Shown piece after piece: positions 3,456 through 54,860 of a stretch of 64,000 nucleotides of DNA. This stretch comes from Candidatus Komeilibacteria bacterium. Its GTDB lineage: Bacteria > Patescibacteriota > Patescibacteriia > UBA1558 > GWA2-36-10. Below the pieces are notes generated by a model, which was not told the DNA's origin, made no database searches, and saw nothing but the letters and a program-made list of their open reading frames with translations. A program made the position numbers and the translations under genes. The first letter of the stretch is position 1. Each line of letters begins with the position of its first letter. Location: positions 288,970-352,969 of the forward strand of contig JABHZY010000024.1 of NCBI GenBank assembly GCA_018656065.1, read 5' to 3'.

Positions 3456-3803
3456 ATGCCAAGAGTAAAAAGAGGTACCACTCATGTTAAAAGAAGAAAG
3501 AATATCCTTGCTAAAACTAAAGGATATAAGTGGGGCCGTAAAAATAAATTAAAAGCAGCCAAAGAGGCTATTTTACACGCTGGTAAACATGCTATGCGTG
3601 ATAGACGTAATAAAAAGAGAGTTAACCGCAGATTGTGGCAAACTAAGCTTAATGCTGCTCTACGTCAATTAGATTGGAAATACTCTGCTTTTATTCATGC
3701 TATGAAAGTTAAAAAATGTGAATTGGATAGAAAAGTATTATCTCAAATCGCTGAAGAAGATCCAAAGGTTTTCAAAAATATTGTAGCTGAGATCAAAAAA
3801 TAA
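3456..3803 (+). CDS. rplT: 50S ribosomal protein L20
   Basis: 115 aa, MPRVKRGTTHVKRRKNILAKTKGYKWGRKN. Confidence 0.95.
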   Translation: MPRVKRGTTHVKRRKNILAKTKGYKWGRKNKLKAAKEAILHAGKHAMRDRRNKKRVNRRLWQTKLNAALRQLDWKYSAFIHAMKVKKCELDRKVLSQIAEEDPKVFKNIVAEIKK

Positions 3804-3813
3804 ATTATACTTA

Positions 3814-3839
3814 AAACCGCCCTTTCGGGCGGTTTTTTT
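3814..3839 (+). terminator. intrinsic terminator after rplT
   Basis: AAAACCGCCC-TTTC-GGGCGGTTTTTTT. Confidence 0.8.
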
Positions 3840-3844
3840 GTTAC

Positions 3845-3912
3845 CCTGCCATTCGGCTCTGAGGCCTAGCGACCTCGTCGCTCAGGCTCGAATGAGAGCA
3901 AAGCCGAATGGG
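3845..3912. repeat. GC-rich nested palindromic element
   Basis: The outer 10-bp inverted repeat is CCATTCGGCT (3849-3858) / AGCCGAATGG (3902-3911). The inner hairpin is AGCGAC-CTC-GTCGCT. Its GC content is far above the flanks. It lies between the convergent rplT and VanZ-like genes. Confidence 0.6.
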
Positions 3913-4305
3913 TTATTTTATAAATTTAAATAGTTTATTAGGTGGACGCACTTTATAAAGCCAAACACCTATATAAACACCTACTGAATCTACTAAAATA
4001 TCTTTCCCCGACCCTACTCTGCCTTGTACATATGATTGATGGAGCTCGTCTACAAATGCATAAACAATAGCCGCTACAATAACAAACAATAAATAATGAC
4101 GCTGCTTGCTATCCATACTAGATGCTATTAGATAAGTCAACACCATAAATACAAACATATGGGCTAACTTACGAAGTACAAAATCATATTTATATGGTAA
4201 ATTAGTTGCTAAATCTGGTGTATCAGAAAGATAAAATATTAAATAACCCCATAGAGCCGCTAAAAGCAAAAATAAAAGTTGTTTTTTTTGTTTTGCAGAA
4301 ATCAT
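3913..4305 (-). CDS. VanZ-like family membrane protein
   Basis: 130 aa with 4 hydrophobic segments. It carries the motifs RKLAHMFVF and DELHQSYVQGRxGSxKDILVDSxG, typical of VanZ-like proteins. Confidence 0.75.
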   Translation of the reverse strand: MISAKQKKQLLFLLLAALWGYLIFYLSDTPDLATNLPYKYDFVLRKLAHMFVFMVLTYLIASSMDSKQRHYLLFVIVAAIVYAFVDELHQSYVQGRVGSGKDILVDSVGVYIGVWLYKVRPPNKLFKFIK

Positions 4306-4940
4306 ACACTTAGTTTCTTTTCATTATTAAGAACCCCTAACAAACTACCTGCTTCCCAATAACCAGCTTGATCCTTTATGTCTTTTTCATTATGTAGTAT
4401 ATGATACAGTCTAAAAGAAAAATCTGGATATTTTTTATGCAGTTTTAAAGCTGCAATTTTAAAACACTTAATATATTTTATCTTATCCTCTGTATAAATT
4501 ATAGTTTTATAACCTTGTTTATATTTATTCTGTAAATACTGATAAAACATCTCTTCATTTTTTATATTAGTATCCTCATAATCAAAAGTGGTATTTATTT
4601 TTTGAAAATACTGCCTAATATCATAACCTAATATAGGATTGAGATATTTTGCTCGCCAATCATTATGTTCGATTAGTCCAGAAGTGAAAGCTTCGTTGTT
4701 TTTTGTCCACTCCAAAACCTCTTTAAAGCCTGGATAAATATCCAAGTTAAAATGTTTACCTTTTGAATAAGGTTCGCGACACATTTCTTCATATTCTCTA
4801 GGTGATACATCCTTAATATTTTTATTAAGTTTTTCTTCCAACCAATCTTCATAAGAATCAACACCTGTAAATTCTTTGTTCCATTTTTCGTGAAACAAAG
4901 TACCTGTTAGATCCCAAAGATATAGTATTTTTTTCTCCAT
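4302..4940 (-). CDS. HAD-like hydrolase superfamily protein with an atypical motif I (tentative)
   Basis: 212 aa. The N-terminal LWDLTGTLF resembles HAD motif I (DxDGTL) but has Thr at the second Asp position. The remaining motifs are weak. Confidence 0.35.
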   Translation of the reverse strand: MEKKILYLWDLTGTLFHEKWNKEFTGVDSYEDWLEEKLNKNIKDVSPREYEEMCREPYSKGKHFNLDIYPGFKEVLEWTKNNEAFTSGLIEHNDWRAKYLNPILGYDIRQYFQKINTTFDYEDTNIKNEEMFYQYLQNKYKQGYKTIIYTEDKIKYIKCFKIAALKLHKKYPDFSFRLYHILHNEKDIKDQAGYWEAGSLLGVLNNEKKLSV

Positions 4941-4943
4941 GCT

Positions 4944-6218
4944 TTATTTATCTAAAATTTTCTTCGCTTGTTTTATATCATTCTCAATACTATCCACTAA
5001 TTTATCTTTAGCCGAAAATCTTTCTACATCTCTTAACTTAGATACAAATCTAAAAGAAAGTTTATCTGGGATATTTTCTAAATGTTCACCCGAAATAATG
5101 TAAGCTTCTAGAGATTTTCTTTTATCTTTAAAAGTTGGAATTGCCCCATAATGAAAAACGGCCTGATGTTTATTTCCATTTAATATAACTAGACCACTGT
5201 ACACACCATATGAATGCTCAAAATTATTTGGGATAATAAAATTCAAAGTTGGAAATCCCAACCTCTTACCCCTACCAGCTCCTCCGATAACTTTAGTATT
5301 ATATATTTTATCAAAAGCAGTATTTAAGCGCGACACTTTATACATGGCAAATAATAAAATGACTGCTGCAATATACTGACTAGGAGCTAACACATTTTTA
5401 TACAAAAATATATCTATAATCACAGCTAAAAATGGAAAGGTAAGTTCTAAAATAGTAGCCACTTTAACTTGAGTATTTTTAAGACCACGATAATAAATCC
5501 ACAAAGCAACCATGCCTGTACTAAAGGCAATAATAACAAAACGCCCCCACTGACTAGCGTCTGGAGCTCCTAGACTAGCTTGTTGCCCTAAAATAAATAC
5601 AAACGCTAAAGCTAATATAGAAGTAAGAAAAAACCTCATACCAGTCACTATGGTATTAGATTTTCTTAATAAAGCAAAACGAGAAAAAGCTGTAGATGAA
5701 CCCCAGGCAAAAGCGGCGCCTAAAGCAAATAAAGCAGCTACCAAGGTTTGATCACCTGTATCAAAGTTAATTAAACCATTTTTGAAAGTAACAAAATAAG
5801 CAGCGCCTAGAGCCAAAATTGCCCAACCAATATACCTTTTACTAATTTTTTCTTTAAGAAATACTACTGCAAAAAACATGGCAAATAACGGCTGTAGTTT
5901 TTGCAATAAAAATACCACTGAGAAAGAAATAAAATTTACTTTTACTAAAGCAGTGGTAAACCAAAGTGTTCCCAAAACACCACTTAAAAGACTAACCAAT
6001 AATAAAGCGCCCCACTCTTTCTTACTAAAACTTAACTTTTTAATGTTTTTTAATAAAAAAGGCGAAATGATTAACAAGCCTATTAGGTGTTCATAAAAAA
6101 CTATAATTATTGGTGGCAAGGAAAAAAGAGATCTACGTAGTATCCCGTCCAAAGCCCACAATATAGCGGCCATCATTATAAGATATGGCCCAAGCTTTTT
6201 CCAGTTTATATATTTCAT
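4944..6218 (-). CDS. fusion protein: EamA/DMT-type 10-TM transporter (aa 1-~295) plus a C-terminal riboflavin kinase domain (aa ~300-424)
   Basis: The N-terminal ~295 aa are repeated hydrophobic helices with an EamA-like duplication. The C-terminus reads GGAGRGKRLGFPTLNF..GVYSG..GAIPTF..SLEAYI..FVSKLRDVERFSAKDKLVDSIENDIKQAK. This matches the RibF C-terminal kinase pattern (GRGxxLGFPTxN, GVY, PTF, LExxxxDF-like, xRxExxFxSxxxLxxQIxxD). Confidence 0.75.
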   Translation of the reverse strand: MKYINWKKLGPYLIMMAAILWALDGILRRSLFSLPPIIIVFYEHLIGLLIISPFLLKNIKKLSFSKKEWGALLLVSLLSGVLGTLWFTTALVKVNFISFSVVFLLQKLQPLFAMFFAVVFLKEKISKRYIGWAILALGAAYFVTFKNGLINFDTGDQTLVAALFALGAAFAWGSSTAFSRFALLRKSNTIVTGMRFFLTSILALAFVFILGQQASLGAPDASQWGRFVIIAFSTGMVALWIYYRGLKNTQVKVATILELTFPFLAVIIDIFLYKNVLAPSQYIAAVILLFAMYKVSRLNTAFDKIYNTKVIGGAGRGKRLGFPTLNFIIPNNFEHSYGVYSGLVILNGNKHQAVFHYGAIPTFKDKRKSLEAYIISGEHLENIPDKLSFRFVSKLRDVERFSAKDKLVDSIENDIKQAKKILDK

Positions 6219-6236
6219 TAATATTATATAAAAAAT

Positions 6237-8201
6237 TTAAATTTCCTCTAACTCTTGACTAGGAGTATGAACACAATAAGATGTGTCTAGGCCAGGATTA
6301 TGACATACGTCTATAGTTGTCGAAAATCTATCCTCACAATTTGCATCGTTATAACATCGCACACAATCTCCTTTAGCGCACGGTGCACATTCTCCATTTT
6401 CATCCAAATAATCTGTAGCCGTGTCACAACATCTGGTTTCACCAAAGGTGATATTAGTTATAGGATATTCTCCTGGATCATCACCACAACATTCATATTG
6501 ATCAGAATTATATTCACCCACCATTGGACCATAATGCCAACCAATGCGACCAAAGTCTCCTGGAAGAGCCCATTTATTATTCTTAGCTACAAGATGCCAA
6601 CCTTGGTGTAATCTATTACAATAATTAAAACTTTCACAAGCAAGTTCACTAGAATCACAATCATGCCACATTGCTAAAGTTGTGGCAGATGACGCCTCGC
6701 AATAAGTATCGTCAACCTTGGCATGTATTTCATTAGCTTCATTTGGCAGATGCGAATTAAAACATGAACCTTGATACACGCAATCATTATCACTCCCCAC
6801 GCAACATTCTTCATGGCCCAAGGTCATAATAACATCCTCAGAAACAGATAAATCCGTTTCTTTAAAATTAGCCACCACCTCATTATCTTCACATGTCAAT
6901 CCATAATCTATCCCTATAGGGGCCATTGCCTGCCATAAATTACATTCCTCAAAACCTAACTTAAAATATCCATCATCTCCAGGGTTTGGCCAATCGGTAC
7001 CCCAACTATTTTTAACTATCCAATACTCTTCAATATCATTATAACCAACTATTACTACTACGTGATTTGTGCTGTATCCATTTTCATTATCACATCTATA
7101 TATCTCATTTTCATCAAAATACCCAGCAGCTTCCTTCATTTGTATTGAAACAATAAGAGGTCCAGCGCTAAGAAGCTTCTCCTTTGTAGAGTAAATTGGA
7201 TTTAACGAAGGGAAAGGTAGCGCCCATTGGTATTCTTCTATTTTAATGCTAGCTAAATCACTACATTTATCAGAACAATACATAGGTTCTAAACCACATT
7301 CATAATAATCACAACCTCTATCATCTATAGCATTATAAGGGAAGCACTTTTCATCTTTTATACCTAAATTTTTTATATAATCTAATGCATCATATTGTGA
7401 TCCCCCATTACAATCATTGCCTCCATTACACGAAACCAATTCTTGCTCTGCTAAATCTGGATCAAAATCAGGATCATTACTAGCGATATTAAAAGCTGCT
7501 TCTGTTGCACCAACGGTCGCAAAAGCCCAACAAGATCCACAAGTACCCTGGTCTTTAACAGACGTCATCCAATCATCCCCATCAACATCTCTCCAATCAA
7601 AATAACTAGGATGATCTAATGTGATTAACTCATCGTTAGATTCTGCTGCATTATTAATTTGTTCTAAATCTTCTCTAGATATAACTTGCTCACCAATAAT
7701 TGATTTTTCAATTGTTTTGCTTAGATTAGTTACAGAACCTAATTCTTTACCTTTATCTGTAACACAAACAGCATATTCTGATGTCAGTGCATTTTGTCCA
7801 TCTTTTTTAACAATTTGATCATAACCTTGCTTAGCACAATATGAATATTCTGTTCCACATTTTCCTTGTAAAAATTCCCATCCTTCGCATGAATTATCAT
7901 TAGAAAATATACATTCACCATGCTGTCCATTTTCATCATTAATTATTTTATACTCATAACCTAATTCATTGCAATATACAGCTGCTGGATTAGCCATGCC
8001 AATCCCACCCTCTTCCGTAATCACCTTCTCTGTTTTAACTACTTTGGCTTTTTTTATATTAAGTCTGTTTAAATCATTCGGCCGAACAGAGAAGGCTGCA
8101 AAATTCAAACCTAAAGAAAATGAAACTCCTATTAAGGTGCTAAGGGCGATCTTTTGTCCTAATTTTAATTTAATTTTTGCCTTAGTTTTTAATTTTTTCA
8201 T
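6237..8201 (-). CDS. secreted papain-family (C1) cysteine protease with N-terminal DUF333-like Cys modules and a Cys-rich C-terminal domain
   Basis: 654 aa with a signal/anchor sequence (KIALSTLIGVSFSLGLNFAAF). It has MANPAAVYCNELGY..GECIF..CEGWEFLQGKCG modules. Its catalytic motifs are QGTCGSCWAFATVGATE, NHVVVIVGY and WIVKNSWGTDW. The last ~220 aa hold many Cys. Confidence 0.85.
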   Translation of the reverse strand: MKKLKTKAKIKLKLGQKIALSTLIGVSFSLGLNFAAFSVRPNDLNRLNIKKAKVVKTEKVITEEGGIGMANPAAVYCNELGYEYKIINDENGQHGECIFSNDNSCEGWEFLQGKCGTEYSYCAKQGYDQIVKKDGQNALTSEYAVCVTDKGKELGSVTNLSKTIEKSIIGEQVISREDLEQINNAAESNDELITLDHPSYFDWRDVDGDDWMTSVKDQGTCGSCWAFATVGATEAAFNIASNDPDFDPDLAEQELVSCNGGNDCNGGSQYDALDYIKNLGIKDEKCFPYNAIDDRGCDYYECGLEPMYCSDKCSDLASIKIEEYQWALPFPSLNPIYSTKEKLLSAGPLIVSIQMKEAAGYFDENEIYRCDNENGYSTNHVVVIVGYNDIEEYWIVKNSWGTDWPNPGDDGYFKLGFEECNLWQAMAPIGIDYGLTCEDNEVVANFKETDLSVSEDVIMTLGHEECCVGSDNDCVYQGSCFNSHLPNEANEIHAKVDDTYCEASSATTLAMWHDCDSSELACESFNYCNRLHQGWHLVAKNNKWALPGDFGRIGWHYGPMVGEYNSDQYECCGDDPGEYPITNITFGETRCCDTATDYLDENGECAPCAKGDCVRCYNDANCEDRFSTTIDVCHNPGLDTSYCVHTPSQELEEI

Positions 8202-8289
8202 AATAAGCTCTAATTAGTCTTATGAATAAATTATAGCATATTGATAAATATTTCTGTACCTGCTATTCTAAAATAGTATAATTTAGCCA

Positions 8290-9096
8290 ATGTTTCACAA
8301 AAAATATTCAGTAAACATCGCCGAAGTCATTTGCCTAGCACTACTATCTAGTGCTGGTATTATTTTAATTGGTCTGCAAATAAAATTTGTAGGCTGGTTA
8401 ATGTTAATTTTGGGACTTATTAGTTTATATTATTGCCGCAAAAAATTCGCCAAAGAAGTGTTATTAGTTTATATATCTTTAGCTTTATTAGCTATTACTC
8501 AAATTACTACCGATATCAGCTATGTTCACATGTTTGAAATGGGAGTTACATTGATATTAGCAGTTAGTATCCCCTATTTTGCTTCTCGTTATATTTATAA
8601 AGACCACCTAGTTCGCTTTATTTTTCATCATGGACGCAATTGGTGTCGCAAAGAAATATTATATATTTTAGTCACTGCTATTATCTCTTATTTTTTATTA
8701 CCTTTTTATCTAAAAAATACTGGTGCTTATCTCAATTGGAGCGTGGAGCCAGGATTTGATAATATTTTTCGTTTATTTATTGGCACTAACGCCTTGGGAA
8801 TCTGGGATGAATTATTTTTTGTCAGTACAGTTTTGGGTATTCTTCGTCGTTTTTTACCATTCTCTTGGGCTAATTTAATCCAAAGCATCCTATTTACTTC
8901 ATTTTTATATGAACTAGGCTTTACTGGCTGGGGCTTTATTATGATTTTTATATTTGCCTTAATTCAAGGCATTGTATTTAAGAAAACCGAGTCGTTACTC
9001 TATGTAATTACCATTCATCTGACATTAGACTTTATTTTATTTTTAGCGCTGATTGAAGCGCACCATCCAGATTGGATGCCAATATTTATAACTTAA
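8290..9096 (+). CDS. polytopic membrane protein, CPBP/Abi-like with degenerate motifs (tentative)
   Basis: 268 aa with ~7 hydrophobic helices. WDELFFVS and IHLTLDF only loosely resemble the CPBP EExxxR and HxxxN/D motifs. Confidence 0.35.
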   Translation: MFHKKYSVNIAEVICLALLSSAGIILIGLQIKFVGWLMLILGLISLYYCRKKFAKEVLLVYISLALLAITQITTDISYVHMFEMGVTLILAVSIPYFASRYIYKDHLVRFIFHHGRNWCRKEILYILVTAIISYFLLPFYLKNTGAYLNWSVEPGFDNIFRLFIGTNALGIWDELFFVSTVLGILRRFLPFSWANLIQSILFTSFLYELGFTGWGFIMIFIFALIQGIVFKKTESLLYVITIHLTLDFILFLALIEAHHPDWMPIFIT

Positions 9097-9100
9097 ACTT

Positions 9101-9128
9101 AAAACCGCCCGTGAAGGCGGTTTTTTTA
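9101..9128. terminator. bidirectional intrinsic terminator between convergent genes
   Basis: AAAACCGCC-CGTGAA-GGCGGTTTTTTTT. Confidence 0.75.
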
Positions 9129-9129
9129 T

Positions 9130-9690
9130 TTACATAAAATTTTTATTGCCAGCTTTCATTTCCTTATTTACTAAGGAAATTCTTTTTTTTCTAGTTAATA
9201 CTAGTTTAGCTCTAAGAATCCAACGATAGATCATTTTCTTTTTCGAAGGGATTATAGAATCAAAAGTTTGTTTAGCTTGTTTATTTTGTTCTAAAATTTC
9301 TTTCAGCTCTTTTGGCATTCTGGGATTTTTAGGGATACCATGATCATGAGTTGGTTTTTGTTTTCCTAGCTCATAATACTTCATACCATTAGGCATCATC
9401 AACCCACTTTTTATAAGTTGCTCAGCATAGCTTATAGTATTATTAGACCAACGACTGTTCTGATTTCTAGCACAAAAATTTCTAATATAGCGATCATCAT
9501 CAAGTCTTTTGACAACAGTGTCTATCCAACCAAAACAGATAGCTTCTTCCATAAGTTCTCTGTGAGTGGGAGCAAGTTTGCCAGTATGTCGCTTATAAAG
9601 TACGACCGAAATGTTTTTTTCTTTGTGATGATTTTTTTTCAACCAACGGCGGAAATCAGCACGATTGTGGATAGTTATGTTTCTAGGCAT
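9130..9690 (-). CDS. YdeI/OmpD-associated family protein
   Basis: 186 aa. FRRWLKKNH..VVLYKRHTGK..EEAICFGWIDTVVKRLDDDRYIRNFCARNQNSRWSNNT is typical of this family. Confidence 0.7.
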   Translation of the reverse strand: MPRNITIHNRADFRRWLKKNHHKEKNISVVLYKRHTGKLAPTHRELMEEAICFGWIDTVVKRLDDDRYIRNFCARNQNSRWSNNTISYAEQLIKSGLMMPNGMKYYELGKQKPTHDHGIPKNPRMPKELKEILEQNKQAKQTFDSIIPSKKKMIYRWILRAKLVLTRKKRISLVNKEMKAGNKNFM

Positions 9691-15695: not shown

Positions 15696-18618
<2,923 letters not shown>

Positions 18619-18621
18619 GGA

Positions 18622-19284
18622 TTATCTTTTATAAACTCTGGAAGAAACAGTAGTCTGAAAAGTATGCTTTACATTCTTAAATTTATTTGGATCATCATAG
18701 GAAGTAAGCATATTGATAGTTACTTTTGGTTGCTGATTATCTCCTCCTTCTATAAAGGGGTCGCTACTTGGAGTTATATAAAAATCTAGACCGTCAAGAC
18801 TTATATTATTTAAATTAGGTGCTAATAATCTTGTATATGTGCGAGAATTACTTTGCCAATTATCACAAATATAATCTTCATCACAATTACTTAAGGTTAT
18901 ATATCTTAATTCTGACGAAGAATCACTAGTATTATATTGAAAACTAGTTAAAGCAAATATTTGCCCATTGGCTTTTTCTAAAATAATACATTTTTCAAAA
19001 TCCCAGATATTTGTAGTTACTGTTCTTAAAACTGAATTACACCAAGCTGGATCTGGTGAATAATTAACTATAGAGCTAGTCCTAATCTCTCTAGCCATAA
19101 GTTCGAAAGCATATTGACTATCATTTAATAATTGCTGAGAAGTTGTAGTACGCATCTGACTATTATTAAAAGCTACATATATAACAGATATAGCGAAAAC
19201 TAATAAACTAAAAATAGATAATGATATCAATATTTCTATCAAAGTAAAGCCTTGATTATTTTTTACAAAATCATTCTTTATCAT
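18622..19284 (-). CDS. type IV minor pilin (prepilin-type N-terminal cleavage/methylation domain)
   Basis: NNQG|FTLIEILISLSIFSLLV leader. Confidence 0.75.
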   Translation of the reverse strand: MIKNDFVKNNQGFTLIEILISLSIFSLLVFAISVIYVAFNNSQMRTTTSQQLLNDSQYAFELMAREIRTSSIVNYSPDPAWCNSVLRTVTTNIWDFEKCIILEKANGQIFALTSFQYNTSDSSSELRYITLSNCDEDYICDNWQSNSRTYTRLLAPNLNNISLDGLDFYITPSSDPFIEGGDNQQPKVTINMLTSYDDPNKFKNVKHTFQTTVSSRVYKR

Positions 19285-19934
19285 CTCCTCCAGTTATAAA
19301 TCTGATCTATAATCTCTAAAGATTTAGTACCACCATCTTCCCATTGAACATGTGATGTAATTTGAATACCAGCATATGTATCTCCAGCATCACAAGGCAA
19401 ATCCATACCAATTATATCCTCAGTATTTTGAGGATTTATTCCCATTTCATCAATACAAATCTTTTCTAAAAATATAGCTCTAGAATAATTAGTTAATTCC
19501 AAAGTACCTGAAACAGGAACTTCATGAACATAATAATTATCAACGTCTTTATATAAATCACATTCTAGGCAAGCTGTTACACAGTCCGTAATACCTGCTG
19601 CACAAGTAGCTCCAAAAGATAACGGCCAAGAATCATTATAGTCAATATAAACATACTGATTATTAACTGTTAAACTATAATCCCAAGTACACGGAATGCC
19701 GCCACAGGTCTCATTAGCTTCTATTCTAAGCCAATTGCTATCCCTCACATTCTTAATTAATTCTATGCCCTCACGAGCTAAATTAGCAGCTATAATTTTA
19801 TCCAAATTATCACGAGAGTTATTATAATTTGCCAGAGCCAAAGAAAGGGCAGCTGAAATACCAATAGTAAAAACAGCTAGCGCTATAACCAACTCTATTA
19901 AAGTAAAACCTTGATTGTTTTTATTACTAGACAC
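19281..19934 (-). CDS. type IV minor pilin
   Basis: NNQG|FTLIELVIALAVFTIG leader. It overlaps the downstream gene by 4 nt. Confidence 0.75.
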   Translation of the reverse strand: MSSNKNNQGFTLIELVIALAVFTIGISAALSLALANYNNSRDNLDKIIAANLAREGIELIKNVRDSNWLRIEANETCGGIPCTWDYSLTVNNQYVYIDYNDSWPLSFGATCAAGITDCVTACLECDLYKDVDNYYVHEVPVSGTLELTNYSRAIFLEKICIDEMGINPQNTEDIIGMDLPCDAGDTYAGIQITSHVQWEDGGTKSLEIIDQIYNWRR

Positions 19935-19958
19935 TAAAAATAAATAAATATTTTATTA

Positions 19959-20669
19959 TTATATTGGTAATTGTATATGAACAGGATCTTCCTTGCCTCC
20001 ATCATCTGGATTAGGATCAGGTGTTGTATATCCAGCAGTACTCTTACCTAAACTAACCCATACTTTACCATCTTCGCCTTCTTCTCCTAACCTCAAGATA
20101 CCCCTATAACTTTGTTCATCATAACCTGCAAAATAGTCTATTTCTAATTCATACAAACCATGAGCATCTTCATGCATATCAGTATCTACTTCATTTTCTG
20201 ATTTAAAAGTAAAATAACGTTTAGTGGCACTAGGATAGTTTAAATCACCTAATTCTAGAAGATTATTGTCTAGAGCTACTATCTTAATAACCATGTCCTT
20301 ATCACCATCATAACCTTCTGCGCTAGTACCAGCATCTGTACCATCTATCCCTGAATCAGCAAAAATTGTATAAGTGCCAGCTGTTCTGTTTGTATAAATC
20401 CCATAACCACCAGGAGGGTATATATCTCCTAGATCTCTTACATCAGCCGTAGTAGTTGCTGAAAAATGATGAATTGTGTTAGAAGTTGCTAAATTCCTAG
20501 TATAACGAATATCAGCAGCTAACTGATCAGTAGCCATATCTACTTCATCCATAATATCTCCCTTAATATAGACTACAGAGATAATAGATATTAGAACTAT
20601 AATAGCAATTGCCATCATCAATTCTATAAAAGTCAATCCCGCTTGATTAGAAAATATTTTTTTTAACAT
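19959..20669 (-). CDS. type IV minor pilin (GspH/FimT-like position)
   Basis: SNQAG|LTFIELMMAIAIIVL leader. Confidence 0.7.
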   Translation of the reverse strand: MLKKIFSNQAGLTFIELMMAIAIIVLISIISVVYIKGDIMDEVDMATDQLAADIRYTRNLATSNTIHHFSATTTADVRDLGDIYPPGGYGIYTNRTAGTYTIFADSGIDGTDAGTSAEGYDGDKDMVIKIVALDNNLLELGDLNYPSATKRYFTFKSENEVDTDMHEDAHGLYELEIDYFAGYDEQSYRGILRLGEEGEDGKVWVSLGKSTAGYTTPDPNPDDGGKEDPVHIQLPI

Positions 20670-20688
20670 AGTTTTATATTAAATTAAA

Positions 20689-21474
20689 TTATATATAATA
20701 AAATAAAGAAAAATACCAATCTATTAAAGCTGGGCCCCACAGCATAGTAATAAAAGTTCCTAATGCCAAAAAAGTGCCGAATGGAATTTTATCTCCCAAT
20801 TCTTTGCGCTTACCCAAAAGTAAAAATATACTAATAAAACTGCCCAGAATATAAGAAATGAAAAGCGCAGTCAAAACATGCGGCCAACCTAAAATAGCTC
20901 CCATAAACACACCTAGCCTTATATCCCCTCCTCCTATCCAACGCCCTTTGGAAACTACAAACTGCAGTAAGAAAAACCCACCGCCAACTACAGCTGCAAA
21001 AATTAAATTAAATATAGAGAATCCCAAAAATAAATTAACAACTAGAGCTAAAATAATTCCTGGCCAAACTACTTTATCTAATATTAAATAATACTTAAGA
21101 TCATAAACAAAAATTATAATCAAAAATGAAACAATGGCCCACCAATCTAATAAATGTACAAACTGTAAAGCTGTAACCGAGGCTAAGTCTAAACTAGGGA
21201 TTATTTTCCAAAAAACCAAAGCAAATACTAAGCCAGTCATTAATTCCAAAACTGGATATTGATTAGAAAATCTTTTCTTACAATAACGACAACGTCCTTT
21301 TAGAGATAAATAGCTAAATAAAGGTATTAGGTCTTTAGCATATAGCCGATGTTTACAAAAAAGACACTTTGAATAGCCTTTAATAAAAGACTCTTCTCTA
21401 TGTAAACGTAAAACAACTACATTTAAGAAGCTACCTACGAAAAGCCCTAAAATAAACACAAAAGCTACTATCAT
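20689..21474 (-). CDS. pilD: prepilin peptidase / N-methyltransferase (A24 family)
   Basis: 261 aa. It has GSFLNVVVLRL, a Cys cluster (CLFCKHRL..CRYCKKR), and GGGDIRLG plus PFGTFLALG Asp-containing motifs. Confidence 0.9.
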   Translation of the reverse strand: MIVAFVFILGLFVGSFLNVVVLRLHREESFIKGYSKCLFCKHRLYAKDLIPLFSYLSLKGRCRYCKKRFSNQYPVLELMTGLVFALVFWKIIPSLDLASVTALQFVHLLDWWAIVSFLIIIFVYDLKYYLILDKVVWPGIILALVVNLFLGFSIFNLIFAAVVGGGFFLLQFVVSKGRWIGGGDIRLGVFMGAILGWPHVLTALFISYILGSFISIFLLLGKRKELGDKIPFGTFLALGTFITMLWGPALIDWYFSLFYYI

Positions 21475-21519
21475 AGTAGCTTTATTATAACATATTTATC
21501 CTTATTTTGGCTATCACTA

Positions 21520-21942
21520 TTATTTACTCTGACAAAGCATTTCTAAATAATTAGACATTTTACAAGTGCCGCCACCTTTTAATTCCCATGTATCCCAAGA
21601 ATGATTTAAATCGAATTCTATAATATAACGATCTTTCATACTAGTTAAAAGTCCTGGCATTACCCATTTTGACTTTTTAAAATATATATAATCACCCTCT
21701 TTATTTACACCATTTTCACTTATCACTGAAATGTTAGCTATATCCATTTGATCAACTTCTGGATAGCTATAATTTATAGCAAAATAATTTTCCATGCTAG
21801 TAGCCAAATGCCTAACTTGAGTAAGCATCTCTAAATCACGAGCTTTACTATTATTATAATTTATTAAAAAAATTAAAACAGCTATTAGAACAACTAATGA
21901 TCCAATGAAAATTGCTTTTGTTTTTATAGAATAATCTAACAT
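21520..21942 (-). CDS. membrane-anchored pilin-like protein lacking the G/FTLxE cleavage motif
   Basis: The track ORF (to 22005) overlaps the upstream pilin. Met at 21942 (MLDYSIKTKAIFIGSLVVLIAVLIF) is the first start after that stop. The post-TM NNSKARDLEMLTQV resembles the pilins' NLNSARDKAK. Confidence 0.4.
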   Translation of the reverse strand: MLDYSIKTKAIFIGSLVVLIAVLIFLINYNNSKARDLEMLTQVRHLATSMENYFAINYSYPEVDQMDIANISVISENGVNKEGDYIYFKKSKWVMPGLLTSMKDRYIIEFDLNHSWDTWELKGGGTCKMSNYLEMLCQSK

Positions 21943-21958
21943 TTTTAATTTAAAATTA

Positions 21959-22393
21959 TCATAAAGTTGTACAGCCAGTACTAGTGTCACAACGTACTTC
22001 AGCACCAGCTACAAAGGCTCTATAATGAAAAGCTCCACTGAAATAATAACATAAACCTTGTATAGCCCCCTCTGATAATTCTGGCCAATCAATAAGTGGA
22101 TCTAAACATAATTCTCCACCTGGATTAAAATTTCCTGAAGGAGGATATGGCGGAGGGCTCTCACAATTACCAGAATTACCAGCAAGCCCCGAACCATTCC
22201 GTATAACACTAGATGAATTATGACAAATATTGATGGCGGGCAATATAGAAGCCATTGTATGCTCTAAAGTTGCAATTTTTGCTTTATCACGAGCTGAGTT
22301 TAAATTAACTACTGCTACAGTAGATAAAATACCAATAATAGCAATAACTACTAATAACTCAACTAAAGTAAAACCTTTTGTTTCTATTTTCAT
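21959..22393 (-). CDS. type IV pilin paralog 1
   Basis: MKIETKG|FTLVELLVVIAIIGILSTVAVVNLNSARDKAK. The C-terminal half is variable and contains Cys. Confidence 0.85.
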   Translation of the reverse strand: MKIETKGFTLVELLVVIAIIGILSTVAVVNLNSARDKAKIATLEHTMASILPAINICHNSSSVIRNGSGLAGNSGNCESPPPYPPSGNFNPGGELCLDPLIDWPELSEGAIQGLCYYFSGAFHYRAFVAGAEVRCDTSTGCTTL

Positions 22394-22409
22394 ATTTTTT
22401 AATAAATAT

Positions 22410-22418
22410 ATTATACCA
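22410..22418 (-). promoter_or_regulatory. extended -10 element (TGgTATAAT) upstream of pilin paralog 1
   Basis: The minus strand reads TGTGGTATAAT, 16 nt upstream of the ATG. Confidence 0.4.
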
Positions 22419-22424
22419 CAAAAT

Positions 22425-22457
22425 TAAAAAACCCTCTACAAAAAGAAAGAAGGTTTT
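22425..22457 (-). terminator. intrinsic terminator after pilin paralog 2
   Basis: The AACCCTCT/AGAAGGTT stem (22430-22437 / 22448-22455, with G:U pairs in RNA) is followed on the minus strand by a U-run. Confidence 0.5.
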
Positions 22458-22482
22458 CTAATTTTAAATTAATATCTAAATA

Positions 22483-22902
22483 TTATTGACAACCACTTTC
22501 ATTACAAAAGATACTTGTCGTACCATCTGTCGCTCCATAGCCAAAAGCTCCAGTTGAAGCAGTGCTACTACAATAACCCAGATAAGACCAAGCACTTTCT
22601 AGAGTCGGCCAAACTGCTGAATCAGTCCAAGCGCAGATCTCACCGCCTGCTACTGGAACATCACCAGCGTCATTACTACAATCTACCACAGTACCAGCAG
22701 TACCATCTTCTGTAAGTTCTTCGCTCTCGTCATGACAAAGTACAACCGCTGGAATCAAACCAACTAAATTACCTTTAACCGAAGCTTCTCTAGCCTTCTC
22801 CCGAGCTGAATTTAAGTTAACTACTGCTACAGTTGATAGAATACCAATGATAGCAATAACTACCAACAACTCAACTAAAGTAAAACCTTTATTATTTTTC
22901 AT
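22483..22902 (-). CDS. type IV pilin paralog 2
   Basis: MKNNKG|FTLVELLVVIAIIGILSTVAVVNLNSAREKAR; ends ..CNESGCQ. Confidence 0.85.
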   Translation of the reverse strand: MKNNKGFTLVELLVVIAIIGILSTVAVVNLNSAREKAREASVKGNLVGLIPAVVLCHDESEELTEDGTAGTVVDCSNDAGDVPVAGGEICAWTDSAVWPTLESAWSYLGYCSSTASTGAFGYGATDGTTSIFCNESGCQ

Positions 22903-22945
22903 ATTTTTTAATTACTCTATTAAATATAATAAATTAAGTAATCAA

Positions 22946-22954
22946 ATTATAACA
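22946..22954 (-). promoter_or_regulatory. extended -10 element (TGtTATAAT) upstream of pilin paralog 2
   Basis: The minus strand reads GTGTTATAAT. Confidence 0.4.
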
Positions 22955-22971
22955 CTTTTTATTAAAAAACA

Positions 22972-23003
22972 CAATTAAAAAACCCTCTGGAAAAGAAGGT
23001 TTT
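22972..23003 (-). terminator. intrinsic terminator after pilin paralog 3
   Basis: AACCCTCT-GGAAA-AGAAGGTT (22981-23001) is followed on the minus strand by a U-run. It is the same module as at 22425-22457. Confidence 0.55.
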
Positions 23004-23028
23004 TTAACTTTAAATTAATATCTAAATA

Positions 23029-23415
23029 TTATTGACAGCCATTCTGAGTACAAACAATAGTTGCTAATGGAGTAGTAGCACCATCAACGATACTAAAGCT
23101 CCATGAACCAAGATAAGCAGTATCCGTAGTAAGAGTTATGGAATCATAATCTTGAGGCAAAGGCGCCCAGTCTACACCAACATCAGGCGAACAGAAATCA
23201 GACCCACTTGCATAAGCTTGAATAGTGCCTGTGTCTTCATTACCACATAGAACGGCCGCTGGTAATAATCCAGCACCCCAACCCTTAGCAGCTGCCTCCT
23301 TAGCTTTTGTACGGGCAGAATTTAAATTGACTACTGCTACAGTTGATAAAATACCAATGATAGCAATAACTACCAATAACTCAACTAAAGTAAAACCTTT
23401 TTTATTTATTTTCAT
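23029..23415 (-). CDS. type IV pilin paralog 3 (probable major pilin)
   Basis: MKINKKG|FTLVELLVVIAIIGILSTVAVVNLNSARTKAK; ends ..CTQNGCQ. The start is taken at Met-7 of the track ORF because GGAGGTG lies 5 nt upstream of that ATG. Confidence 0.85.
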   Translation of the reverse strand: MKINKKGFTLVELLVVIAIIGILSTVAVVNLNSARTKAKEAAAKGWGAGLLPAAVLCGNEDTGTIQAYASGSDFCSPDVGVDWAPLPQDYDSITLTTDTAYLGSWSFSIVDGATTPLATIVCTQNGCQ

Positions 23416-23541
23416 GTTTTCACCTCCAATCACTCTAGCAAATTTTATTGATCAGTTAAGGCCCGAGATCTCCGAGGTTTTAACTTTCAATAAAAATACT
23501 ATTAATCTTAATAATTTTATTTTTAAAAAAATAACATTCTT

Positions 23542-23570
23542 ATTATATCATTTTTTTGGTTTTTCAACAA
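23542..23570 (-). promoter_or_regulatory. promoter of pilin paralog 3
   Basis: Minus strand: TTGTTG (-35, 23570-23565), 17-nt spacer, TGaTATAAT (23550-23542). This gives a ~120-nt leader containing the palindrome GAGATCTC. Confidence 0.45.
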
Positions 23571-23586
23571 CGACTTTTCCACTACG

Positions 23587-23625
23587 CTTGTCATTTCGAC
23601 CGAACGGAGTGAGTGGAGAAATCTA
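23587..23625 (+). repeat. 39-bp direct repeat, copy 1 (flanks the GIY-YIG gene 3' end)
   Basis: CTTGTCATTTCGACCGAACGGAGTGAGTGGAGAAATCTA. Copy 2 at 24014-24052 differs at 2 positions. A shortened inverted copy lies at ~41483-41510. Confidence 0.9.
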
Positions 23626-23911
23626 ATAACCCCTCTGATAAATCAATCCACTTGGAATTATCTTTTTCTATTAAACTAACTTTTTTCTCACGCCTCCATT
23701 TCTTTAATTGTTTCTCTCTTTCTATTGCAATACTTATATCATCTGTATGTTCAAAATAAACTAATTTATATGTTTTATATTTACTAGAAAACCCTTTAAT
23801 TAATCCCTCTTTATGTTCTTTTACTCTTCTAGCTAAATTATTAGTTACTCCAATGTATAAAGTTTTTGATATACTAGACATTATGTATACATAAAAGTTA
23901 TATTCTTTCAT
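23591..23911 (-). CDS. GIY-YIG nuclease superfamily protein (UPF0213/YhbQ-like)
   Basis: 106 aa, YFVYIMSS..KTLYIGVTNNLARRVKEHK..KLVYFE..AIEREKQLKKWRREKK. The last ~10 codons are read out of repeat copy 1. Confidence 0.8.
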   Translation of the reverse strand: MKEYNFYVYIMSSISKTLYIGVTNNLARRVKEHKEGLIKGFSSKYKTYKLVYFEHTDDISIAIEREKQLKKWRREKKVSLIEKDNSKWIDLSEGLLDFSTHSVRSK

Positions 23912-23919
23912 AAATTGAA

Positions 23920-24100
23920 TTTACAGATCTCTCGACTACGCTCGAGATGACAAAAGGATTATGCTCGAGATGACAACAAGTGCATACTCTAGATGACAAA
24001 AGGTTTCGCTTTCCTTGTCATTTCGACCGAACATAGTGAGTGGAGAAATCTAGTTTACAGATCTCTCGACTACGCTCGAGATGACAAAAGGATTATGCTC
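23920..24100 (+). repeat. mosaic repeat region between the GIY-YIG gene and pilC
   Basis: A 47-bp direct repeat TTTACAGATCTCTCGACTACGCTCGAGATGACAAAAGGATTATGCTC occurs at 23920-23966 and 24054-24100. A 23-bp tandem unit CTC(G/T)AGATGACAA(A/C)A(A/G)G.. occurs three times at 23941-24009. The 39-bp repeat copy 2 lies at 24014-24052. Confidence 0.9.
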
Positions 24101-24116
24101 CAAAATGACCTTGTTA

Positions 24117-25325
24117 TTAAGAAATACTTTGAGCCACTTTAAACATCGGCAGCATTATAGCTGCTACCATACCACCTACACCGACGCCCATCACAATTAA
24201 AATCAAAGGTTCAATCAAAGAAGTTAAGCCATCTACCAAATTATCAATTTCTCTACTATAAAAATCACTCAATTTCTCTAAAACATTATCTAATTTACCA
24301 GTCTTCTCACCAATAACCATCATTTGTGAAAGCATTTTAGGCATTAATTTTGATTTAACAAATAAAGTAGCTAGGGAGTTACCACCTTCTACTTCATCTA
24401 CTGTATCAAGTATTAATTTTTCATAAGCTTTATTATCCACCACCTCTGCTGTAATAGTTAAAGCAGAAGTAATTGGCACTCCACCTCTAATAAGTGTAGA
24501 TAGAGACCGAGTAAAACGTACTATATATACTTTTTTAAAAAGTGTTCCAAAAATAGGTATCTGAATTTTTAATGCATCCCAAGTAAGCTTACCAACACCT
24601 GACTTTAACCAAAATCTAAAAAGGACTATCAAGCCAGCCACTCCAAAAATTATATAATACCAATAAGAACTCATAAAATCTGAAGTGCCTATTAATATCC
24701 TCGTCACAAGTGGTAATTCAGCACCAGTTTCTTCAAGCATCTTAGTCATATTTGGCACTACAAAAGTCATCATTAAAAAACCAACTACAACCATTGATGA
24801 TATTATAAAGACTGGATAAATCATAGCACTCTTAATCCGAGAAATAAGATCGTAGTCTTTCTCCATTTGATCGGCTAAGTATTGTAATATTTCATCTAAT
24901 TTACCAGAAGTTTCACCTGACTTGACCATGGCTATATAAAAATTACTAAATGTATTTCCATGTTTAGATAAAGCACTAGAAAACCTCATACCACCTTCCA
25001 CATCATCTGCCATTTCTATTATTTTTTCTATGAAAATAGGATTAACTGTTTGTTGAGCTAATATTCTTAAAGATTGCACAATAGGCACTGTTGCCGATAT
25101 CATAACTGATAATTGACGAGAAAATATTACTAAATCTTTATGCTTAACCTTACCAATATTTATATTCCAACTCTTTCCTTGTTTTTGGCTAGTTTCTGAT
25201 AAAGCTAAAACAATTAAACCTTTTTCGTTTAACAATTCTGCAGCATCACTTTCAGTCACTGCCTCTACAGCTCCATTTGTTAATCTGCCATCATTTGTTC
25301 TTGCTCTATATTTATATATTGCCAT
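24117..25325 (-). CDS. pilC: type IV pilus platform protein PilC (GspF family)
   Basis: 402 aa. It has the duplicated GspF-domain architecture with 3 TM segments (FSRQLSVMISATVPI, FTRSLSTLIRGGVPI). Confidence 0.9.
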   Translation of the reverse strand: MAIYKYRARTNDGRLTNGAVEAVTESDAAELLNEKGLIVLALSETSQKQGKSWNINIGKVKHKDLVIFSRQLSVMISATVPIVQSLRILAQQTVNPIFIEKIIEMADDVEGGMRFSSALSKHGNTFSNFYIAMVKSGETSGKLDEILQYLADQMEKDYDLISRIKSAMIYPVFIISSMVVVGFLMMTFVVPNMTKMLEETGAELPLVTRILIGTSDFMSSYWYYIIFGVAGLIVLFRFWLKSGVGKLTWDALKIQIPIFGTLFKKVYIVRFTRSLSTLIRGGVPITSALTITAEVVDNKAYEKLILDTVDEVEGGNSLATLFVKSKLMPKMLSQMMVIGEKTGKLDNVLEKLSDFYSREIDNLVDGLTSLIEPLILIVMGVGVGGMVAAIMLPMFKVAQSIS

Positions 25326-25348
25326 TTTATGTTGAATTTATTGAAACA

Positions 25349-26401
25349 TTAATTGAAGCCCTCTGAATCTACTGCCTGATTTCTGGCATCTTCTATACTA
25401 ATTTCTCCTACTCTTACTAATTCTGACAATGCTTTATCTAAAGAAATCATACCCTCATGTTTGGAGGTTTGCATAATACTATTTAACTGTTGTAACTTAC
25501 CATCTCTAATAGAGCTTCTAACAGCTGGAATATTTACCAATACCTCTGAAGCCATAGTTAATCCCCCACCTACTCTAGGCAGCAATCTTTGAGCTACAGC
25601 ACCTAATAGAGAGTTGGCTAATAAATCTTTACCCCATTCTTTTTTATCAACTGGTATATTACTAATAAACCTCTCTAAAGCAGATATTATTGAATCGGCA
25701 TCCATAATTAATATAATTAGTTTACCACTTTCAGATAATTCCAATATCAATTCCTCCATACCATCTTCATGCATACAGTCTACAAAAACAGCGTCTATAT
25801 CTTCATCAAGCATATTTTTGAGACCGCTGATAAAAGTATTTACATCTTTACCTACGCTTCTTTGTTCAATCACTGATTGATTATTAGAAAACAAATATTC
25901 TATTGGTTTTTCTAAAGTTTGTATATGAATTCCTTTATTTTGATTAAGTGTTTCCACTAAAGAAGCTGCTGTAGATGTACGTCCACTACCAAAAGGACCT
26001 GTGATAATAATCAAACCTTTATCTCTATTTAAAAGTTGTAATACAGCGGCTGGCACCCCTAAATCTTTTGGCGCTCTAATAAATGGAGATATCAAACGCA
26101 AAGAAACAGCTAAAAATCCTTTTTGATAAAAAACTTTAGCTCGATATCTACTACGATCAGCCCAATTATATATAGTGACTACTTCTTTTTCTTTACTTAG
26201 TCTTTCAAATTCTTCCTTAGCCAAAAAAGCTTCTGCTAAAGCAGTTAAAATATCGCCAGTCAAAATTGCTTGATCCGCTAAAGTAACCAATCTACCCTCC
26301 ACTCTAATAACTGGATTATTACCAGCTACCAAATGAACATCTGTGGCTTTTCTTTCAGCAGCCGCATTTAATATATCATTTATAATCAAAGTATCTGACA
26401 T
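25349..26401 (-). CDS. pilT: PilT-like hexameric ATPase homolog with all catalytic signatures degenerate
   Basis: 350 aa, collinear with PilT. Walker A is GPFGSGRTS (Arg at the Lys position, codon CGT 25979-25981). The Asp box is TLEKPIEY, Walker B is DAVFVDCMHED (canonical ILVGEMRD), and the His box is LIMDA (canonical GTLHT). Confidence 0.85.
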   Translation of the reverse strand: MSDTLIINDILNAAAERKATDVHLVAGNNPVIRVEGRLVTLADQAILTGDILTALAEAFLAKEEFERLSKEKEVVTIYNWADRSRYRAKVFYQKGFLAVSLRLISPFIRAPKDLGVPAAVLQLLNRDKGLIIITGPFGSGRTSTAASLVETLNQNKGIHIQTLEKPIEYLFSNNQSVIEQRSVGKDVNTFISGLKNMLDEDIDAVFVDCMHEDGMEELILELSESGKLIILIMDADSIISALERFISNIPVDKKEWGKDLLANSLLGAVAQRLLPRVGGGLTMASEVLVNIPAVRSSIRDGKLQQLNSIMQTSKHEGMISLDKALSELVRVGEISIEDARNQAVDSEGFN

Positions 26402-26405
26402 GTTT

Positions 26406-26789
26406 TTATTCTTCTTCTTTTTCTAAAATAACTTTTATCTTATTAATTACCTCAGATGGCACAAAATGAGCCTTAATTAAATAATCATCAGCTCCTAGAC
26501 CTAAACAACGATCAATGTCTTCTTTCTGAGAATAATTAGTTAATATTAAGATTCTAATACCCTTGGTATCGTCATCTCTCTTCAATTGACTAAGCACTTC
26601 AAAACCACTCATCTCTGGTAAATTAAGATCCAAGAGTATCAAATCAGGCTTTTCTTTTTGAGCAACTTTTAAACCCTGTAAACCATTAATGGCTTCCAAG
26701 ACTTTAAAACCCTCTAATTCCAACTTAGTGGAATACATCTGCAATAAAAATTCGTCGTCTTCGACAATTAGTACTTTTTTATCTTCCAT
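26406..26789 (-). CDS. single-domain response regulator (CheY/PilH-like receiver)
   Basis: 127 aa, VLIVEDDEF..DLILLDLNLPEMSG..ILTN..GADDYLIK. Confidence 0.85.
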   Translation of the reverse strand: MEDKKVLIVEDDEFLLQMYSTKLELEGFKVLEAINGLQGLKVAQKEKPDLILLDLNLPEMSGFEVLSQLKRDDDTKGIRILILTNYSQKEDIDRCLGLGADDYLIKAHFVPSEVINKIKVILEKEEE

Positions 26790-26816
26790 ATAATTATTAT
26801 AAATTAATATTTTTTA

Positions 26817-28553: not shown

Positions 28554-28577
28554 TAAAAATACTTTAGATTGTAAATT

Positions 28578-28940
28578 TTATCTATCACCCTCACCACTCT
28601 CATCGATTGAAATACCAGCAACAAAAGGGCTCGGATTACCAATATTTTCTTCTATATCTATGTTTATTTCCATATCTTGTAATCTATTAAATTGATCATT
28701 AGTATAAAAATCTTCCCAAATAGTTCCGGGAAAAAAATCAACATCCAAAAAATCATTTATATTACTTATAGCACCTTCTTTTACTTTATACACATACTCT
28801 ATATGTATATCTGATAGCTCTTCCTGTTCAAAATCAAGAGGTTTTAAAGTTTTAAAAGTCCAAATACCACTACCAATAGCCACTACAGCGAGTACTGCTA
28901 ATAAAATCATAATAGTTTTTTTGTCACTCTTTTTTTTCAT
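28578..28940 (-). CDS. small N-terminally anchored protein in the pilus operon, unknown function
   Basis: 120 aa with a single TM segment (IMILLAVLAVVAIGSGIW) and an acidic ectodomain. Confidence 0.4.
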   Translation of the reverse strand: MKKKSDKKTIMILLAVLAVVAIGSGIWTFKTLKPLDFEQEELSDIHIEYVYKVKEGAISNINDFLDVDFFPGTIWEDFYTNDQFNRLQDMEINIDIEENIGNPSPFVAGISIDESGEGDR

Positions 28941-28946
28941 AATAAA

Positions 28947-29705: not shown

Positions 29706-29735
29706 AATATTTCAACCACGTTCAATATATAAATT

Positions 29736-31211: not shown

Positions 31212-31214
31212 AAA

Positions 31215-34842: not shown

Positions 34843-34875
34843 TGATATATAAAAACTTAAATTTTAAAATAAATA

Positions 34876-36189: not shown

Positions 36190-36222
36190 AAGTTTATATT
36201 AAATTTTATTATTAACAAGCTT

Positions 36223-36231
36223 ATTATACCA
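36223..36231 (-). promoter_or_regulatory. extended -10 element (TGgTATAAT) upstream of paralog A
   Basis: The minus strand reads TGTGGTATAAT, ~33 nt upstream of ATG 36189 and just after the paralog-B terminator. Confidence 0.4.
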
Positions 36232-36252
36232 CAAAAGACTATCGAGCAACAA

Positions 36253-54857: not shown

Positions 54858-54860
54858 AAA

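Follow-up and report, generated by a model that had tools for sequence, protein, structure and literature searches.

An ImpX-like permease fused to a riboflavin kinase in Candidatus Komeilibacteria, a probable protein for riboflavin uptake and trapping

ImpX of Fusobacterium nucleatum complemented a riboflavin auxotroph of E. coli; its gene is usually monocistronic, is controlled by a riboswitch, and was found only in riboflavin prototrophs of the Proteobacteria, Firmicutes and Fusobacteria (PMC4418817). RibN, which carries a drug/metabolite transporter (DMT) family annotation and has a riboflavin import function (PMC10012899), was treated as a separate family present only in Proteobacteria (PMC4418817). 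In the Pnu systems (PnuC/NadR, PnuT/thiamine kinase, and PnuX, which is RibM), an unphosphorylated vitamin is proposed to be taken up and then trapped by phosphorylation in the cytoplasm, and the transporter and kinase genes are co-localised; the trapping was demonstrated in part for PnuT (PMC5749112). Here we describe a gene that combines a permease and a kinase in one protein. It lies within a 64,000-nucleotide stretch of a Candidatus Komeilibacteria bacterium, a member of the Patescibacteria with a very small genome (GCA_018656065.1, contig JABHZY010000024.1, positions 288,970 to 352,969), referred to in full as the window, and encodes a DMT permease of the EamA type followed by a riboflavin kinase. 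The product is very likely a two-part riboflavin salvage protein, in which ImpX-type uptake is followed by metabolic trapping of riboflavin as flavin mononucleotide (FMN) by the fused kinase.

The gene and its parts are as follows, with positions in the window and residues (res) of the protein.

4944-6218, minus strand: complete fusion gene, 424 codons plus TAA, a single open reading frame (ORF) with full-length homologs that carry both Pfam domains
5310-6218, minus strand: ImpX-family DMT/EamA permease domain, res 1-303, predicted ten transmembrane helices with both termini inside (Pfam, AlphaFold2, Foldseek, ImpX homology)
5889-5906, minus strand: LQKLQP motif, res 105-110, with Q106, K107, Q109 and P110 invariant in the fusions of the Candidate Phyla Radiation (CPR) and the motif common to ImpX
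5283-5333, minus strand: junction, res 296-312 (DSSP of the AlphaFold2 model, alignment)
4947-5306, minus strand: monofunctional ATP-type riboflavin kinase domain PF01687, res 305-424, predicted cytoplasmic (Pfam, RFK homology, Foldseek)
5241-5252, minus strand: PTLN, the riboflavin-kinase "PTAN" motif, with P323, T324 and N326 invariant in 63 fusions
5199-5207, minus strand: GVY, the GxY flavin-site motif, with G338 and Y340 invariant in 63 fusions
5106-5111, minus strand: LE, with E371 invariant and aligned to the Glu of human RFK "ME" and C. ammoniagenes "VE"

The reading frame starts with ATG, ends with TAA and contains zero internal stops. A 10-helix EamA/DMT permease (res 1-303) and a monofunctional riboflavin kinase (res 305-424) are thus encoded by one ORF, and the in-frame fusion proposed in a preliminary description of the window, made from the sequence alone, is confirmed by the uninterrupted 424 codons and by Pfam matches to both EamA and PF01687. 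The same 424-residue protein, 100% identical, is present in a public ENA assembly. NCBI, JGI and Logan assemblies contain further fusions at 88, 86, 83 and 70% identity, on contigs that reach about 1 Mb, and the closest relative with a source name is a protein at 88% identity from a metagenome-assembled genome (MAG) of Candidatus Komeilibacteria. Homologs that span the full length and carry both Pfam domains are 48-88% identical to the window protein and make up dozens of clusters at the 90%-identity level. When 1.84 billion cluster representatives were scanned exhaustively with phmmer, 14 or more full-length fused proteins emerged, every one standing for its own 50%-identity cluster and the most distant at 27% identity; for five of these plus P0160, Pfam again recovered the domains of the fusion. 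Some relatives have permease-then-kinase operons whose junctions overlap or hold a single stop, so that an error of one nucleotide in assembly or gene calling could mimic a fusion of two adjacent genes. The recurrence of the uninterrupted ORF in independent ENA, NCBI, JGI and Logan assemblies, from 100% to 27% identity, refutes this explanation and leaves it next to no probability. No frameshift or stop interrupts the junction. In the AlphaFold2 model the helix of transmembrane segment 10 ends at res 303 and the first kinase strand begins at 305 (DSSP), which leaves essentially no linker, and res 296-312 are devoid of Met and show few insertions or deletions across the alignment of 63 fusions.

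The kinase half matches Flavokinase PF01687 over the whole domain (res 307-422, profile 8-124 of 124, E 7.6e-23, 81.5 bits against a cut-off of 19.6), so that the kinase-like domain passes the profile search by a wide margin. The NCBIfam models of RibF are matched through their C-terminal kinase part only (profile about 190-320), which indicates that the FMN-adenylyltransferase domain is absent. Pfam and NCBIfam agree on this point, which had already been noted as the lack of an N-terminal FAD-synthetase domain, with res 1-303 occupied by the permease. By sequence the kinase half matches human RFK (1nb0, E 3e-11) and the enzymes of C. ammoniagenes, S. pombe and T. maritima. The PTAN, GxY, Glu and Arg motifs align with human RFK and the C. 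ammoniagenes RFK module, and the kinase motifs quoted in the preliminary description are all found in the protein. The barrel (res 305-422) superimposes on human RFK 1q9s with a root-mean-square deviation of 2.3 A over 129 columns at 30% identity, and on the C. ammoniagenes module 5a89 with 2.2 A (Foldseek). Human RFK (1nb0/1q9s) and the C. ammoniagenes enzyme (5a88-5a8a) therefore share Pfam family, fold and catalytic motifs with the window kinase, which differs from RibF/FAD synthetase in having a membrane permease in place of the N-terminal adenylyltransferase. Residues P323, T324, N326, G338, Y340, E371 and R396 are invariant in 63 of 63 fusions (46-88% identity). The Glu equivalent to E371 is presumably the catalytic base of riboflavin kinases. 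The invariance of the catalytic residues suggests that the domain is under selection as an enzyme, predicted to be an ATP:riboflavin phosphotransferase (EC 2.7.1.26).

In the permease half, Pfam EamA matches two stretches (E 2.1e-34, 119 bits, cut-off 28). The AlphaFold2 model, built on the 63 fusions, has a mean pLDDT (predicted local distance difference test) of 88.8 and a pTM (predicted template modelling score) of 0.82, and places ten transmembrane helices at res 6-303 with the beta-barrel of res 305-422 directly after them. By Foldseek the membrane half resembles the LicB choline importer 7paf (TM-score 0.82 on the target) and YddG 5i20, and the membrane-domain matches among the 50 best listed are all of the DMT type (LicB, YddG, nucleotide-sugar and triose-phosphate transporters). 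With two EamA repeats and a 5+5 helix fold the protein belongs to the DMT superfamily; the NCBIfam DMT models give weak scores against it (60 bits or less, below their cut-offs). Lysine plus arginine residues number 18 on the kinase side of the membrane and 4 on the other side in the window protein, with means of 15.2 and 3.4 in the 63 sequences. By the positive-inside rule, this bias predicts that the kinase domain is in the cytoplasm.

When the permease half was used as a tblastn query against 7.3 Gb of plasmid records, two matches were obtained in this one-directional search. The top match (39% identity, 96% coverage) is in a 2.1-Mb Fusobacterium vincentii record (locus L086, NZ_CP084075.1). 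The record is listed in PLSDB as "Fusobacterium vincentii plasmid pSB055A", carries a single annotated feature, and is evidently a chromosomal sequence entered as a plasmid. The F. vincentii gene encodes an EamA protein (Pfam), is monocistronic, and has an FMN riboswitch (118 bits) upstream; both published impX cloning primers (PMC4418817) flank it with three mismatches each, against 0 expected by chance. The riboswitch and the two primers together identify it as the ortholog of F. nucleatum ImpX. The window permease aligns with it end to end, at 39% identity over 295 residues (E 4e-57), and ImpX is the closest characterised relative found, in a comparison that RibN stood outside. The two proteins share the EamA/DMT family, the motifs LQKLQP, YY-GL and KVAT-EL-FP and other conserved polar positions. 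By homology the window permease would thus belong to the ImpX family, and LQKLQP is a candidate element of the substrate site. The two differ in arrangement and host. ImpX stands alone, whereas the permeases of the window and the CPR are fused to a riboflavin kinase or closely linked with its gene, and the CPR hosts are Patescibacteria, outside the survey of PMC4418817.

The two halves suggest a simple sequence of events. External riboflavin would cross the membrane through the N-terminal 10-helix ImpX-family permease. The C-terminal kinase, held without a linker at the cytoplasmic end of transmembrane helix 10, would phosphorylate the incoming riboflavin to FMN with ATP. The charged FMN is presumably not a substrate of the permease and would be retained inside the cell.

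Relatives of the permease allow an examination of whether it keeps company with a kinase beyond the fused forms. At least 588 genomes contain a relative; from these, 80 species-representative loci and a few others gave 83 non-redundant loci, which were classified with purpose-built hidden Markov models (HMMs) of permease and kinase.

Fused, permease then kinase: 9 of 83 loci
Adjacent, co-directional, permease first: 22 of 83 loci
Adjacent, co-directional, kinase first: 28 of 83 loci
Co-directional, about 1 kb apart: 3 of 83 loci
Divergent: 6 of 83 loci
Convergent: 4 of 83 loci
Kinase absent within at least 3 kb on both sides: 7 of 83 loci
Contig too short for classification: 4 of 83 loci

A kinase gene is fused, adjacent in any orientation, or about 1 kb away in 72 of the 83 loci. 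Representative kinases from the non-fused arrangement classes all pass Pfam Flavokinase. The linkage survives inversion of either gene, showing that shared transcription alone is insufficient to explain it. With the HMM of the fused kinases, the fused forms score 143-167 bits, the kinases of permease-first operons 104-148 and those of kinase-first operons 30-78. In one permease-first operon (L010) a single in-frame TAG stands between the permease and the kinase ATG, and in four others (L004, L017, L020, L030) the permease stop and the kinase start overlap. These junctions mark a likely route from operon to fusion, and the fusion would most likely have originated from a permease-then-kinase operon that lost its stop codon. 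In a neighbour-joining tree of the permeases, which carries no support values, the fused forms occupy four or more branches, with operonic forms in between, a scatter that hints at repeated fusion or fission.

Other genes also recur within 3.5 kb of the permease in loci L006-L085: aspartyl-tRNA synthetase in 33 loci, a 110-residue protein like pterin-4a-carbinolamine dehydratase (PCD/DCoH) in 26, aminopeptidase N in 16, an ABC-F ATPase in 13 and a TrpR-like protein in 11. The recurrence of these genes probably reflects lineage synteny. A conserved FMN adenylyltransferase, considered as a possible partner, is not among these recurrent neighbours. The contigs of L012, L015, L017-L020, L066, L079 and L081 are titled "uncultured Gammaproteobacteria", "Pseudomonadales" or "Methylococcaceae", yet their permease, kinase and gene content are Patescibacteria-like, and the titles are probably mislabelled MAG taxonomy.

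The linkage also bears on how closely uptake and phosphorylation are coupled. The fusion could be a true group translocation system, a vectorial phosphorylation outside the PTS (phosphotransferase system), in which phosphorylation by the kinase is obligatory for the release of riboflavin. The near-absent linker between helix 10 and the barrel, the few indels at the junction, and the occurrence of fusions on at least four separate branches of the permease tree would fit such a mechanism, as would the pTM of the two-domain model, which suggests a defined mutual orientation. However, permease and kinase are separate proteins in most members, in some encoded on opposite strands or unlinked, and ImpX by itself brings riboflavin into E. 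coli (PMC4418817). We consider group translocation unlikely. It is similarly improbable that the kinase barrel is docked rigidly on the cytoplasmic mouth of the permease, takes riboflavin from the transport site and releases FMN only. Since permease and kinase are separate in the majority of relatives, the system is more safely described as uptake and, in a subsequent step, metabolic trapping. The vectorial phosphorylation envisaged in the preliminary description is accordingly supported as far as trapping is concerned, and is not supported as a necessity in its strict, coupled sense.

FMN riboswitches provide a second line of evidence. Rfam RF00050 (gathering score 66.2) matches at 75-118 bits, on the same strand and 43-145 nt upstream of the permease, in 12 of the 81 loci scanned. 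Four of these loci are without an adjacent kinase, five are among the six divergent loci, and three are permease-first operons, including L010, where the order is riboswitch, permease, kinase. In the five divergent loci the riboswitch occupies the intergenic region between kinase and permease. Scanning of the fused, kinase-first and convergent loci among the 81 gave no FMN riboswitch. The riboswitch-bearing unfused orthologs are 54-65% identical to the window protein, and the riboswitch directly upstream is a feature they share with ImpX; the fused forms are without it. As had been remarked for the region before the gene, the window has no FMN riboswitch, either at the Rfam gathering level in the whole 64 kb or at E<=5 in positions 3500-9500. 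FMN riboswitches have been reported for riboflavin uptake and biosynthesis genes (PMC4418817).

A second type of kinase is also found fused to permeases of this family. In P0169 and three further clusters (P0270-272) the permease is followed at its C terminus by PF01982, the CTP-dependent riboflavin kinase of archaeal type, which is non-orthologous to the bacterial kinase (PMC5397151).

L088, 6001-7287: permease-PF01982 fusion
L089, 735-2021: permease-PF01982 fusion
L091, 10001-11263: permease-PF01982 fusion
L092, 1584-2846: permease-PF01982 fusion

The four clusters are 47-49% identical to one another and come from contigs of several samples, and they appear to be a parallel case of fusion, to a non-orthologous kinase. 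Their neighbourhoods contain TrmB-, V4R- and KaiC-like genes, and the nearest named standalone relatives include those of Aenigmatarchaeota, Micrarchaeota, Woesearchaeota and Nanoarchaeota, plus several bacterial groups. The hosts may be archaea, probably of the DPANN type, as these data hint, with neighbourhoods that are not decisive. Group translocation evolved in parallel in both radiations of ultra-small cells, in the CPR with an ATP-type kinase and in probable DPANN archaea with a CTP-type kinase is, taken jointly, again an improbable reading.

Another family member, P0126 (L090, 6001-8859), is a 574-residue fusion of the permease with a HAD domain, directly followed by riboflavin synthase (Lum_binding, ribE) and lumazine synthase (DMRL_synthase, ribH). 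The HAD domain could be a pathway phosphatase or an FMN hydrolase. In such a biosynthesis operon export would make sense, and export is common among EamA/DMT proteins. The window permease might then be a flavin exporter or a bidirectional facilitator, with the kinase-like domain as a gating sensor of cytoplasmic flavin or nucleotide; facilitators of the Pnu type are bidirectional (PMC5749112). This is very unlikely. PTxN, GxY, Glu and Arg do not vary among fusions as divergent as 46% identity, a constancy that speaks for catalysis; the FMN riboswitches of the orthologs match the pattern reported for genes of uptake and biosynthesis (PMC4418817), and the evidence from ImpX favours import (PMC4418817).

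A more distant homolog, at 31% identity, lies on the megaplasmid of Thermomicrobium roseum (L087, 904-4117, NC_011961.1) inside an operon of cofD, cofC, the DMT gene and a nitroreductase-family gene. This F420 biosynthesis context hints that the T. roseum protein may transport a deazaflavin, for example FO, and that specificity may vary in the wider family. If so, the permease of the window could have a different substrate, another flavin-like compound such as FO or an unrelated metabolite, with a secondary association to the kinase. The identity of the window protein to the riboswitch-controlled orthologs (54-65%) and to ImpX (39%) is far higher, and its family is linked to two different riboflavin kinase families; the chance that it carries another substrate is accordingly minute.

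Riboflavin is proposed as the substrate because of the kinase linkage, the FMN riboswitches of the orthologs, the homology to ImpX, and the parallel PF01982 fusion together with the rib operon context. The same four observations support the earlier suggestion that the importer-kinase fusion traps riboflavin as FMN. For the window protein itself the substrate and the direction of transport are inferences, and so are the mode of energy coupling, whether by facilitated diffusion or by proton symport, and any kinetic or channelling benefit that the fusion may bring. Several points weigh against uptake and trapping as the function of the fused protein. The sequence is silent on the direction of transport, in a superfamily with many exporters. 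The window gene and all nine fused loci are without an FMN riboswitch, so that the evidence for FMN regulation comes from the unfused orthologs. Seven of the 83 orthologous loci show no kinase within at least 3 kb on either side. For the CPR members the support consists throughout of sequence, model and comparative data. The host is presumed to lack riboflavin biosynthesis from the 64 kb examined, and one family member, that of L090, adjoins ribE and ribH. Pfam scans of chosen ORFs of at least 100 residues found no riboflavin biosynthesis gene in the window, in agreement with the preliminary description, and no FAD_syn domain or obvious flavoprotein.

The described systems differ from the fusion in several respects. 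The Pnu transporters have a fold unrelated to the DMT permease of the window and resemble it in logic alone; the window-type kinase is covalently fused in many lineages, and fusion is unmentioned for the Pnu systems in PMC5749112. RbkR, a fusion of the archaeal CTP-dependent kinase RibK, likewise shows the recruitment of a riboflavin kinase domain into a fusion protein (PMC5397151). Its kinase is joined to a winged helix-turn-helix DNA-binding domain and not to a transporter, and the window kinase is of the bacterial ATP type. The same study of the archaeal riboflavin regulon lists RibU and RibT as the sole transporters (PMC5397151). Neither the survey of PMC4418817 nor PMC5397151 includes the CPR branch, its systematic linkage with a kinase or the fusions. 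A full-text literature search returned no description of an EamA/DMT-riboflavin kinase fusion, nothing relevant on FMN riboswitches in the CPR, and no paper on a vitamin transporter fused to its trapping kinase. Source annotations of the relatives read "EamA family transporter" or "DMT-like permease" only. The importer family and the kinase are known and no new principle is involved; for their recurrent covalent or genomic coupling the search gave no earlier description.

In the window the fusion gene is part of a cluster of four genes that run in the same direction, in the order protease, fusion, orphan ORF and VanZ, with gaps of 18, 3 and -4 nt.

6237-8201, minus strand: papain-family (C1) cysteine protease, 654 residues, with N-terminal DUF333 and a long Cys-rich C-terminal region
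6219-6236, minus strand: gap of 18 nt between the fusion and the upstream papain-type protease gene (ORF coordinates)
4302-4940, minus strand: orphan ORF, 212 residues, 3 nt downstream of the fusion and overlapping VanZ by 4 nt
3813-3836, no strand assigned: terminator-like hairpin closing the cluster

The 18-nt distance given in the preliminary description is exact by coordinates. It is far too short for a riboswitch, and the protease gene and the fusion are likely co-transcribed. A promoter scan gave 24 sites against 21.3 expected and was uninformative. The N-terminal "DLTGTLF" of the orphan ORF resembles HAD motif I, and a HAD-like reading had its analogies in the plant FMN hydrolase/RFK and in the permease-HAD protein of L090, but the ORF has no match in Pfam, in the PDB or in any fetched locus, and no similarity to the HAD domain of L090; it was rejected as HAD-like. 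It appears to be a lineage-specific insertion, because VanZ directly follows the fusion in the closest relatives, L006 and L007.

The window as a whole has 32% GC and carries type IV pilus genes, ligA, gatA, lgt and tmRNA/smpB, a content typical of Patescibacteria. The smpB gene and then a full-length tmRNA (113 bits) occupy 1789-2631 on the plus strand; smpB/tmRNA, IF3-L35-L20 and VanZ recur near the fusion in L001, and tmRNA and VanZ in L007, which indicates local synteny. The large type IV pilus cluster (17692-32423, minus strand) comprises PilX_N, five or more genes for N-methyl pilin-like proteins, an A24 prepilin peptidase, T2SSF, two T2SSE ATPases, a response regulator and PilM, with a 106-residue GIY-YIG ORF (23591-23911) embedded in it. 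It is followed by four consecutive large ORFs of 778, 437, 670 and 464 residues (32506-39731, minus strand) with no Pfam match at E<=1e-5. Genes like those of conjugation or type IV secretion lie at 51730-56261 (minus strand) among ORFs without a Pfam match, and their products include an ATPase with TraG P-loop and HerA-like domains and a PrgI family protein. A 1060-residue ORF near the end of the window (60809-63991, minus strand) also has no Pfam match at E<=1e-5, and the GC content is 0.40 in the last 2 kb, compared with about 0.32 elsewhere.

The fusion gives a testable function, riboflavin uptake, to a DMT family that occurs in 588 or more species-level genomes, where its annotation goes no further than "EamA/DMT family transporter". 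It extends the ImpX family to the Patescibacteria and, by source names, to DPANN-type archaea, and the picture of ImpX as a protein of riboflavin makers only, drawn by the 2015 survey (PMC4418817), needs re-examining. Fusion of one permease family to a second, non-orthologous kinase family is unusually strong comparative evidence for functional coupling. The fused protein offers a compact and tractable system for asking whether metabolic trapping can become channelled. Riboflavin is suggested as a metabolite that these cells take up, which may be useful for models of episymbiotic bacteria and for attempts at their cultivation.

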